From Eledone cirrhosa (Eukaryota), in assembly GCA_964016885.1 (NCBI GenBank), contig OZ024743.1, forward strand, positions 295,802,001-295,866,000: a DNA stretch of 64,000 bases. Direction: 5' to 3'. Below the pieces are notes generated by a model. That model was not told where the DNA came from, ran no database searches, and saw only the letters and a list, made by a program, of their open reading frames with translations. A program made the translations under genes and the position numbers. The first letter of the stretch is position 1, and each line of letters opens with the position of its first letter. Of this stretch, positions 19,141 through 21,819 are shown in pieces.

Positions 19141-19664
19141 TTATATATATATTTTTATATATATATATATATATATATATTTTTATATATATATATATAT
19201 ATATATATATATATATATATATATATATATATATGTATATATATATATATATATATATATATATATATATATATATATATATATATATATATATATATAT
19301 ATATATATATATATATATATATATATATATATATATATATTTATATATATATATATATATATATATTTATATAAAAACAAATAACGAAACGAAATTAAAT
19401 TTCGTTTCGTTTGTAACTCACTTTTGTATGACTGACGCTTAAACAATTAAGTTAAAAATGTACATCCACATATGTATACTGAAATACTAGTATGCATATG
19501 AATACACACACGTGTACATATGTAGATGTACCGAGTTTTTCACTGGACACTTTACTGTGAGTGTTCAGCTAGTCTGTATGTAAACACACAGACAAACCGG
19601 TTTTTAGAGTCATACTGGTTTTCGAGGAAAGACCTTTCCTCTATTCTCCAGAAAGCCAGACAGG

Positions 19665-19709
19665 AATATTGGACTAGTTTCGATGTTGTTACATCTCATC
19701 AGCAATATT
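19665..19709 (-). ncRNA. Type-I hammerhead ribozyme, array copy 1
   Basis: AAUAUUG-CUGAUGA-GAUGU AACA ACAUC-GAAAC UA GUC^CAAUAUU. Confidence 0.92.
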
Positions 19710-20129
19710 TACCTATCCTCCGGCCTTTCTAGAGAATCGTAAAAGCACATATCGTTATATGCTTTTTCTATGAAAATTAGTAGTGGGCAGACTAATTTGC
19801 ATAGAGCGTGAGTACGTACCGGTTCAGCGGAGACGATAAAAACAAATAACGAAACGAAATTAAATTTCGTTTCGTTTGTAACTCACTTTTGTATGACTGA
19901 CGCTTAAACAATTAAGTTAAAAATGTACATCCACATATGTATACTGAAATACTAGTATGCATATGAATACACACACGTGTACATATGTAGATGTACCGAG
20001 TTTTTCCCTGGACACTTTACTGTGAGTGTTCAGCTAGTCTGTATGTAAACACACAGACAAACCGGTTTTTAGAGTCATACTGGTTTTCGAGGAAAGACCT
20101 TTCCTCTATTCTCCAGAAAGCCAGACAGG

Positions 20130-20174
20130 AATATTGGACTAGTTTCGATGTTGTTACATCTCATCAGCAATATT
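20130..20174 (-). ncRNA. Type-I hammerhead ribozyme, array copy 2
   Basis: Identical to copy 1, offset by 465 bp. Confidence 0.92.
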
Positions 20175-20667
20175 TACCAATCCTCCGGCCTTTCTAGAGA
20201 ATCGTAAAAGCACATATCGTTATATGCTTTTTCTATGAAAATTAGTAGTGGGCAAACTAATTTGCATAGAGCGTGAGTACGTACCGGTTCAGCGGAGACG
20301 ATAAAAACAAACCGGTTTGTCTGTGTGTTTACATACAGACTAGCTGAACACTCACAGTAAAGTGTCCAGTGAAAAACTCGGTACATCTACATATGTACAC
20401 GTGTGTGTATTCATATGCATACTAGTATTTCAGTATACATATGTGGATGTACATGTTTAACTTAATTGTTTAAGCGTCATTCATACAAAAGTGAGTTACA
20501 AACGAAACGAAATTTAATTTCGTTTCGTTATTTGTTTTTATCGTCTCCGCTGAACCGGTACGTACTCACGCTCTATGCAAATTAGTCTGCCCACTACTAA
20601 TTTTCATAGAAAAAGCATATAAGGATATGTGCTTTTACGATTCTCTAGAAAGGCCGGAGGATAGGTA

Positions 20668-20712
20668 AATATTGCTGATGAGATGTAACAACATCGAAAC
20701 TAGTCCAATATT
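20668..20712 (+). ncRNA. Type-I hammerhead ribozyme, array copy 3
   Basis: aatattg-ctgatga-gatgt aaca acatc-gaaac ta gtc^caatatt; predicted cut after C20705. Confidence 0.92.
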
Positions 20713-21132
20713 CCTGTCTGGCTTTCTGGAGAATAGAGGAAAGGTCTTTCCTCGAAAACCAGTATGACTCTAAAAACCGGTTTGTCTGTGTGTTTACATA
20801 CAGACTAGCTGAACACTCACAGTAAAGTGTCCAGTGAAAAACTCGGTACATCTACATATGTACACGTGTGTGTATTCATATGCATACTAGTATTTCAGTA
20901 TACATATGTGGATGTACATTTTTAACTTAATTGTTTAAGCGTCATTCATACAAAAGTGAGTTACAAACGAAACGAAATTTAATTTCGTTTCGTTATTTGA
21001 TTTTATCGTCTCCGCTGAACCGGTACGTACTCACGCTCTATGCAAATTAGTCTGCCCACTACTAATTTTCATAGAAAAAGCATATAACGATATGTGCTTT
21101 TACGATTCTCTAGAAAGGCCGGAGGATAGGTA

Positions 21133-21177
21133 AATATTGCTGATGAGATGTAACAACATCGAAACTAGTCCAATATT
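21133..21177 (+). ncRNA. Type-I hammerhead ribozyme, array copy 4
   Basis: Identical to copy 3, offset by 465 bp; predicted cut after C21170. Confidence 0.92.
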
Positions 21178-21819
21178 CCTGTCTGGCTTTCTGGAGAATA
21201 GAGGAAAGGTGTTTCCTCGAAAACCAGTATGACTCTAAAAACCGGTTTGTCTGTGTGTTTACATATACACTAGCTGAACACTCACAGTAAAGTGTCCAGT
21301 GAAAAACTCGGTACATCTACATATGTACACGTGTGTGTATTCATATGCATACTAGTATTTCAGTATACATATGTGGATGTACATTTTTAACTTAATTGTT
21401 TATATTTATATATATATATATATATTTATATATATATATATATATTTATATATATATATATATATATATATATATATATATATATATATATATAATATAT
21501 ATATATATATATATATATATATATATATATATATATAGAGAGAGAGAGAGAGAGAGAGAGAGAGAGAGAGAGAGAGAGAGAGAGAGAGAGAGAGAGAGAG
21601 AGAAATATACACGGGTGTGTATGAGTGTGTATAGAAGATTATATTAATAAAAGGAATTCCGACTTTCTTTGATTTACTCGTTTTATTTACAATCCTTTAA
21701 AATTTATAATGGTATTAGAATGAAATAGTATGTTTGAATATTAAATGTTAAGTGTTAATTGAACATATACAGTGAAAAGTGGCTCCAGAATGCTAAATCT
21801 TGCAAACTGTATTTCGACC

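Follow-up and report, generated by a model that had tools for sequence, protein, structure and literature searches.

The window analysed here, a stretch of 64,000 nucleotides, contains at 19371-21402 a 465-bp repeat that carries a hammerhead ribozyme and is laid out in two arms running away from each other into tracts of (TA)n. The locus raises the question of what kind of element this is, which machinery inserted it and what form of RNA served as the template.

Two unequal arms of a 465-bp unit

Tandem Repeats Finder reports a 465-bp period with 99% matches at 19371-20311 (2.0 copies) and at 20309-21402 (2.4 copies, or more closely ~2.35), and the unit copies across 19371-21402 are 98-99% identical. 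A concatemer of the unit has no long ORF (the longest ATG ORF is 68 aa), no LTR-like layout is seen in the unit, and the GC content of the 465-nt monomer is 36.6%. The description in the earlier note of about 4.4 near-identical, non-coding units in divergent arms with TA on both sides is thus borne out by the repeat coordinates, the identity and the ORF length.

The arms point outward from a junction at 20309-20311, where they have three bases in common and unit position 223 is joined to unit position 1. The left arm (19371-20311, minus strand, 941 bp) runs from unit position 223 through two turns to position 233, which we call the long site, and the right arm (20309-21402, plus strand, 1,094 bp) runs from position 1 through two turns to positions 159-164, the short site. 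Hence the "palindrome" of the original description is not symmetric. The stretch between the two presumed RT start sites, unit 165-233, is present only at the left end of the insertion (19371-19439, minus strand) and corresponds to the "tail" of PMC11167929 and PMC8557442. The short end (21397-21402, plus strand) lies within a small hairpin, in its loop and its 3' strand, and the exact base of this end is blurred by TA microhomology. Aligned to each other, the arms are 99% alike over 872 bp; they differ at several positions, one variant is specific to one arm, and the variants grade along the arms.

According to Tandem Repeats Finder, the left flank is a (TA)n target tract at 19142-19370 (called as 19142-19373) and the right flank is (TA)n followed by (AG)n at 21403-21603, with the TA tract itself called at 21401-21537. 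Retrozymes are expected to have a TSD of >4 bp when one is present; here both flanks of the insertion are TA tracts. Each unit also carries the octamer ATGCAAAT, at 20575-20582 and 21040-21047 on the plus strand and at 19795-19802 and 20260-20267 on the minus strand. It is conserved in 576 of 599 motif contexts from the fetched loci, which partly overlap, and is a candidate internal promoter element. We take it to resemble the snRNA-type promoter of newt satellite 2.

The ribozyme and its predicted monomer

A type I scan of the whole window returned exactly four hammerhead motifs, on the strands and at the positions first proposed for them. Two lie on the minus strand (19665-19709 and 20130-20174, with predicted cleavage after 19672 and 20137) and two on the plus strand (20668-20712 and 21133-21177, with predicted cleavage after 20705 and 21170). 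Against Rfam Hammerhead_HH9 the four score 32.5-34.2 bits, under the gathering score of 52, with E-values of 8e-5 to 3e-4 window-wide and of 2.5e-7 in a 201-base scan. The 37-nt core occurs as 1,599 exact copies in the 3.0-Gb assembly that contains the window, versus none for a reversed control, and hence the motif is not a product of chance. Across 67 distinct ribozyme contexts the stems are kept paired by compensatory changes, for example at stem I pair 4 (AU 45, GC 17) and stem II pair 3 (UA 50, GC 17), most of which reflect a few family splits and not independent events.

The ribozyme had been called minimal, which does not describe it well. It has a 7-bp stem I that extends past a bulge (seen at 20668-20712), a 5-bp stem II and a short palindromic stem III, and since stem I continues beyond the bulge it belongs to the canonical animal type I form, as defined in PMC4209133, with a short palindromic helix III. 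The accompanying proposal that it cleaves as a dimer is plausible by analogy: according to PMC7229834, the axolotl HHR_Amex1 likewise has a weak palindromic helix III and cleaves well only as a dimer.

Between the plus-strand cleavage sites, the 465-nt monomer (20706-21170) is predicted to take on a branched structure with extensive self-pairing, in which the ribozyme core is still formed. In these predictions it folds far better than its shuffled versions, with z-scores of -10.6 as a linear molecule and -9.3 as a circle, 68% of which is paired. The idea that read-through from the flanks would release this monomer is nevertheless doubtful at palindromic loci. The opposite arm would be copied first, in antisense, and, with pairing possible between the arms along 872 bp of 99% identity, the transcript should form long double-stranded RNA rather than fold ribozymes. 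Read-through across 19371-21402 should therefore yield mostly double-stranded RNA.

An abundant and recently active family

A search of the assembly for a 32-mer of the tail gave 8,716 occurrences within one mismatch and no control matches. The genome comparison suggested in the earlier note thus reveals a dispersed family of 8,716 near-exact units, and 19371-21402 fits as one young copy of a very abundant retrozyme family. Relaxing the pattern while keeping stem III yields 40,263 related hammerheads versus 25 in controls, and some arrays are ~30 units long. One haplotype occurs 15 times at five loci on five contigs, all of them homogeneous, in what is a very recent burst; at locus L067, 3,750 bp of units of this haplotype are without a difference.

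Among the first 100 hammerheads listed, there are many members of a sister family with units of 424-502 bp, which is 67-70% identical to the unit, has a similar series of hairpins and retains both the fold and the two end sites described below. A diverged copy of this sister repeat (66-70%, in two pieces) is present in the window at 50917-51448 on the minus strand.

Two retrozyme insertions of different subfamilies (L246, L247) lie next to each other in one TA tract. Two other coded organisms (runs X4 and X5) each yielded a single contig of 495-496 nt that holds one unit at ~96-97% identity and low depth; a related host, contamination or diet may account for them, and tandem DNA can produce such single-unit contigs just as circles can.

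One long end and one short end in every classifiable insertion

We mapped 86 distinct insertions. They were drawn from the top BLAST hits and from the earliest places on contig 1 and are not a random sample. A long end was defined as unit 230-234 and a short end as unit 158-165. Two divergent arms are present in 63 of the 86, and a tiny complementary second arm was found in 6 of the 23 apparently one-armed copies. The two-armed insertions comprise 53 with one long and one short end, none with two long ends, none with two short ends, eight with one irregular end and two cut by the edge of the fetched sequence. The chance of 53 such pairings in 53 is 0.5^53, or ~1e-16, and three further loci are also long plus short. 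Position 233 is used in 50 of the 53 and position 159 or 164 in 46, so that the two fixed sites lie ~70 nt apart and the tail measures 69-74 nt in all 53 classifiable insertions. The side that carries the long end varies, being the left in 27 and the right in 26, and TA-rich sequence adjoins 100 of the 106 classified ends. The family has two fixed ends, and they are strictly paired, one of each per insertion.

The divergent palindrome was therefore overstated as a special feature of this locus, as it is the usual form of the family. A head-to-head inverted copy is also a described feature of PLEs (PMC8557442). The unit shows the characters of a PLE-type insertion, namely the inverted head-to-head copy (63/86), the tail at one end (53/53) and the TA target (100/106), and it is very probable that the retrozyme was inserted by PLE machinery. 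Identical terminal inverted repeats with a fixed interior, which mark MITEs and foldback elements, are not what we find at these loci, where the ends are unequal and the junctions variable. Spread at the DNA level as a satellite or foldback-type element, with an incidental hammerhead, would agree with arrays of up to ~30 units and with block duplications. It is highly improbable in view of the two fixed but unequal 3' ends, the scattered 5' ends, the TA targeting, an anatomy like that of RT-encoding PLEs and the compensatory changes in stems I and II.

The same ends speak to the authenticity of the arrangement. Among the contigs listed from an independent run (X1), none spans the window's own junction, as would be the case if the palindrome were an assembly artefact. 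However, short-read contigs of that run have loose TA ends at both end sites, the window's arms differ at several positions, and dozens of loci spread over many contigs show the same unequal ends with a junction of their own, so we give an artefact hardly any credence.

The junctions of the 53 insertions have 1-9 shared bases in 28 cases, short inserts in 13, blunt joins in five and at least 10 shared bases in seven. The last group, some of which lies at internal hairpins, would suit a scheme proposed for rotifer PLEs (PMC3846280), in which a single priming event is followed by fold-back self-priming that makes the inverted arm. Such an origin would leave the fixed stop site of the second arm without a reason, and it is largely refuted by the lengths of the arms: at 14 of the 53 loci, the window's included, both arms are too short for either to have been copied from the other in a single pass. 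In the window, the joining of unit 223 to unit 1 shows that the inversion is not a fold-back. Furthermore, the 5' ends of the two arms are independent, lying within 20 nt of each other at only 6 of the 53 loci (p 0.32). We thus regard fold-back as very unlikely. In a post hoc comparison on which we do not rely, the 5' ends of long arms fell in the tail more often than expected (12/38, p 0.007) and those of short arms did not (5/37, p 0.66).

Autonomous PLEs obey the same rule

The rule of one long and one short end is common to three autonomous PLE families and the sister retrozyme. PLE-A has an ORF of 832 aa and ends 164 nt apart; of the 16 loci fetched with a full ORF, seven show both ends, and all seven have one of each. 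Counting only ends that match the motifs, long plus short was found in 9 of 9 cases for PLE-C, a very young family with an ORF of ~1,280 aa, and in 13 of 13 for PLE-D. The sister retrozyme gave three valid long-plus-short pairs; a fourth spanned two insertions and was dropped. Pfam returned no family for the PLE ORFs, which we take to be those of PLEs from their visible RT and GIY-YIG-type motifs and their anatomy.

Within the window, PLE-A insertions at 25842-26830 and 44013-47468 are inverted and have one long and one short end each. Together with a PLE-D stump in a TA tract, they support the proposed match between this inversion, its TA target and the PLE insertions nearby. TA tracts are landing sites for several PLE-type families.

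The PLEs themselves afford some further observations. The stump (43301-43476) is a tiny palindrome with a short and a long end, and PLE-D-type stumps of 90-200 bp recur in many of the fetched loci. The PLE-A insertion at 44013-47468 contains an open stretch of 549 aa (44093-45742), and intact 832-aa copies are common elsewhere in the assembly. By eye, the PLE-A pLTR (L135, L146) holds a hammerhead variant whose core has C instead of U4 and whose stem III is palindromic. An inverted PLE-B insertion lies at 21817-23934, ~400 bp to the right of the retrozyme, and the PLE-B end has, again by eye, a motif resembling a hammerhead, in which stem II is very long and stem III palindromic (L199, L206). 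The PLE-C ORF (L227, L228) includes an Asn/His/Thr-rich low-complexity insert; many PLE-C copies are 98-100% identical over the C-terminal 217 aa, and both end sites are at the ORF start.

The autonomous partner was not found among the four PLE families compared. The unit is without an ORF for RT and GIY-YIG domains, by which an autonomous PLE is recognised. A comparison of the unit with the ends of PLE-A, -B, -C and -D brought up no significant match (best E 0.23), and no pLTR homologue of the unit was found among these four families; the genome holds more of them. Matches of 70% beside PLE-A ORFs were considered as a pLTR homologue and rejected, as they belong to the sister retrozyme, a distinct element that occupies the same TA tracts. 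Hammerheads catalogued with relaxed criteria across all loci that were fetched included no stem III in common with an ORF-linked element. At one locus (L090, positions 1-2327; G000:C4:377869300-377872700), a young PLE-C arm with a short end is joined directly to a retrozyme arm with a long end. This chimera is a possible event of co-priming on two RNAs, which would name the partner. However, the retrozyme is also joined to older PLE-D remnants at L083 (short plus short, contrary to the rule that L090 obeys) and L094, and PLE-D copies are 82-97% alike, mostly 85-91%. Deletion at or after insertion can thus make chimeras, and L090 is only a lead.

Circular or linear template

At 48 loci with enough overlap, the two arms of a locus differ by a median of 0.6% versus 1.9% between loci, and the partner arm is the nearest or tied for nearest in 33 of them. 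A rare variant is present in every unit of both arms at 25 of 53 loci, and both arms exceed one unit at 23 of 53. Variants confined to one arm number four in 53 loci, one of them in the window's insertion. Locus-specific variants, rare haplotypes included, are thus usually found in every unit of both arms. Gene conversion from arm to arm could contribute to variants common to both.

The alternative that deserves most attention has the same PLE twin-priming on linear multimeric transcripts of existing arrays, the circles being a by-product or absent and the ribozyme not needed. It is supported by three long arms (L070, L100 and L061) with variants that recur every 4, 5 and 6 units, respectively. 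Such periodic variants need multimeric templates or later block duplication; they are not explained by a monomer circle and count against a circular template. The graded variants of the window's arms point the same way. The tracing of donor haplotypes, in which the 15 matches at five loci on five contigs included no mixed donor array, all five loci being homogeneous, does not discriminate between the two kinds of template. In vitro, moreover, hammerhead mutants left PLE insertion unreduced (PMC11167929), a result that counts against our best reading as well as favouring a linear template. Linear transcripts are difficult to reconcile with the rare variants that fill both arms, with the frequency of arms longer than one unit, and with the conservation of the ribozyme stems and the monomer fold between families that are only 67-70% identical. 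We consider them unlikely as the main template and lean towards a circular one.

A model for the insertion

The reading that we find likely, taken as a whole, is that 19371-21402 is a non-LTR retrozyme inserted not long ago. Being non-autonomous, it would have been mobilised in trans by a PLE with an endonuclease and twin-primed, most simply on a circle. The PLE protein of the anole nicks AT-rich DNA, extends both strands and is predicted to be dimeric; it uses two internal RNA start sites, and the interval between them is the genomic tail (PMC11167929). On the strength of this enzymology we interpret the insertion as a product of twin priming in which each strand uses one of the two sites, and we hold twin priming itself with good confidence. 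The geometry suggests that both arms are first-strand cDNAs from target 3' ends on opposite strands.

The following course of events would produce the observed structure. Tandem copies would be transcribed, perhaps from the octamer ATGCAAAT as a promoter, and paired hammerheads would excise 465-nt monomers that a host ligase may close into circles, by analogy with the retrozymes of coral, mussel and axolotl. The RT/GIY-YIG protein of a PLE, probably as a dimer, would then nick both strands of a (TA)n tract and prime two cDNAs, the first starting at unit 233 and the second at unit 159-164. Each would extend for a variable length, often more than one unit, and presumably on the same type of RNA, since the 5' ends of the arms are independent and rare variants are shared. 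The 3' ends of the cDNAs would finally join through short microhomology, and fill-in would give a head-to-head palindrome with the tail on one side.

We also entertain a stronger version, to which we give slightly less than an even chance. It holds that PLE integration is obligatorily asymmetric twin priming, with site 1 used on one strand and site 2 on the other within one complex, and that here it uses a ribozyme-made circle copied for more than one round by both subunits. Two published results count against our best reading: the bulk start sites in vitro are alike between strands (PMC11167929), and only one of nine Xenopus retrozyme dimers cleaved (bioRxiv 10.64898/2026.07.22.740005). The missing similarity between the unit and the ends of the four PLE families, a tail longer than the published ones and the arm-specific variant in the window weigh against it as well. 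If the stronger version is true, the family provides evidence, at the level of insertions, that PLEs use the circles of animal retrozymes directly as substrates, and its 465-nt unit is a compact cis-element with which the reaction could be reconstituted.

Relation to known elements

The unit resembles the animal non-LTR retrozymes (Cervera and de la Peña 2020, PMC7229834; Li et al. 2026, bioRxiv 10.64898/2026.07.22.740005) in being a non-coding tandem repeat with one type I hammerhead per unit and a GC content <50%, in its thousands of dispersed copies, in the self-paired predicted circle and in its co-occurrence with PLEs. Retrozymes are recognised by at least two consecutive units, each with a complete type I hammerhead; each arm here has two. 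The length of 465 bp slightly exceeds the 150-450 bp range given in PMC7229834 and is within the 51-972 bp range of the preprint. The claim of a new retrozyme family therefore stands for the family itself, which is a new member, but not for its class, which is already known. Our literature search found no paper that describes the 465-bp family or the strict pairing rule; subscription papers, Dfam and Repbase were outside its scope, and a described relative is possible. In the portions consulted of the two retrozyme papers, neither head-to-head arms nor two fixed ends are described.

Closest in ribozyme structure is the HHR_Amex1 type of axolotl and newt (the satellite 2 class), which has the same one-pair stem III and palindromic tetraloop; by analogy, dimer-dependent cleavage is expected here too. 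In contrast to it, the genome in question is of the invertebrate type and the sequence of the unit is unrelated. For newt satellite 2, a snRNA-type promoter is cited at second hand (PMC2220036).

Insertions of endonuclease-bearing PLEs (PMC8557442, PMC3846280, PMC11167929) have the same inverted head-to-head copy, tail at one end, AT-rich or (TA)n target and two start sites. They differ from the 465-bp unit, which has no ORF, and their published tails are 30-40 bp versus 69-74 nt here. Furthermore, those papers describe the tail as "optional" or "often only at one end", whereas the pairing seen here is strict (53/53). The palindrome is thus ordinary for PLEs; what gives the family its value is the strict rule of one long and one short end and the link between retrozyme and PLE at the level of the insertion.

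In L1 twin priming, two target 3' ends prime two cDNAs whose joining by microhomology results in an inversion, and the insertions described here share this scheme of two primers and two cDNAs. In L1, however, the internal site at which the second primer anneals varies, and the arms are free of overlap. The insertions described here have two fixed sites, and their arms overlap by entire units.

The mobiliser of retrozymes has so far been argued from co-occurrence and phylogeny. Retrozymes have been linked to PLE pLTRs by phylogeny (bioRxiv 10.64898/2026.07.22.740005), and a 2020 review (PMC7761336) noted that they have no motif revealing their mobiliser. Thousands of young copies with the PLE-specific two-ended footprint tie retrozymes to PLE enzymology insertion by insertion. 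The pairing rule also turns a descriptive oddity of PLEs into a prediction, namely that start sites are anti-correlated between the strands of one target molecule, which is testable in the existing in vitro PLE assay. With ~40,000 related hammerheads, the genome is a rich source of natural circular-RNA scaffolds.

Other features of the window

Rfam matches to miRNAs and snoRNAs in the window were rejected as microsatellite noise. On the minus strand, a broken LINE-type reverse transcriptase (Pfam RVT_1) lies at 13440-15174, and an open stretch of 173 aa with weak C2H2 zinc-finger matches, likely the C-terminus of a LINE, lies at 30439-30960. A 153-bp sequence is tandemly duplicated at 17484-17775 (1.9 copies).
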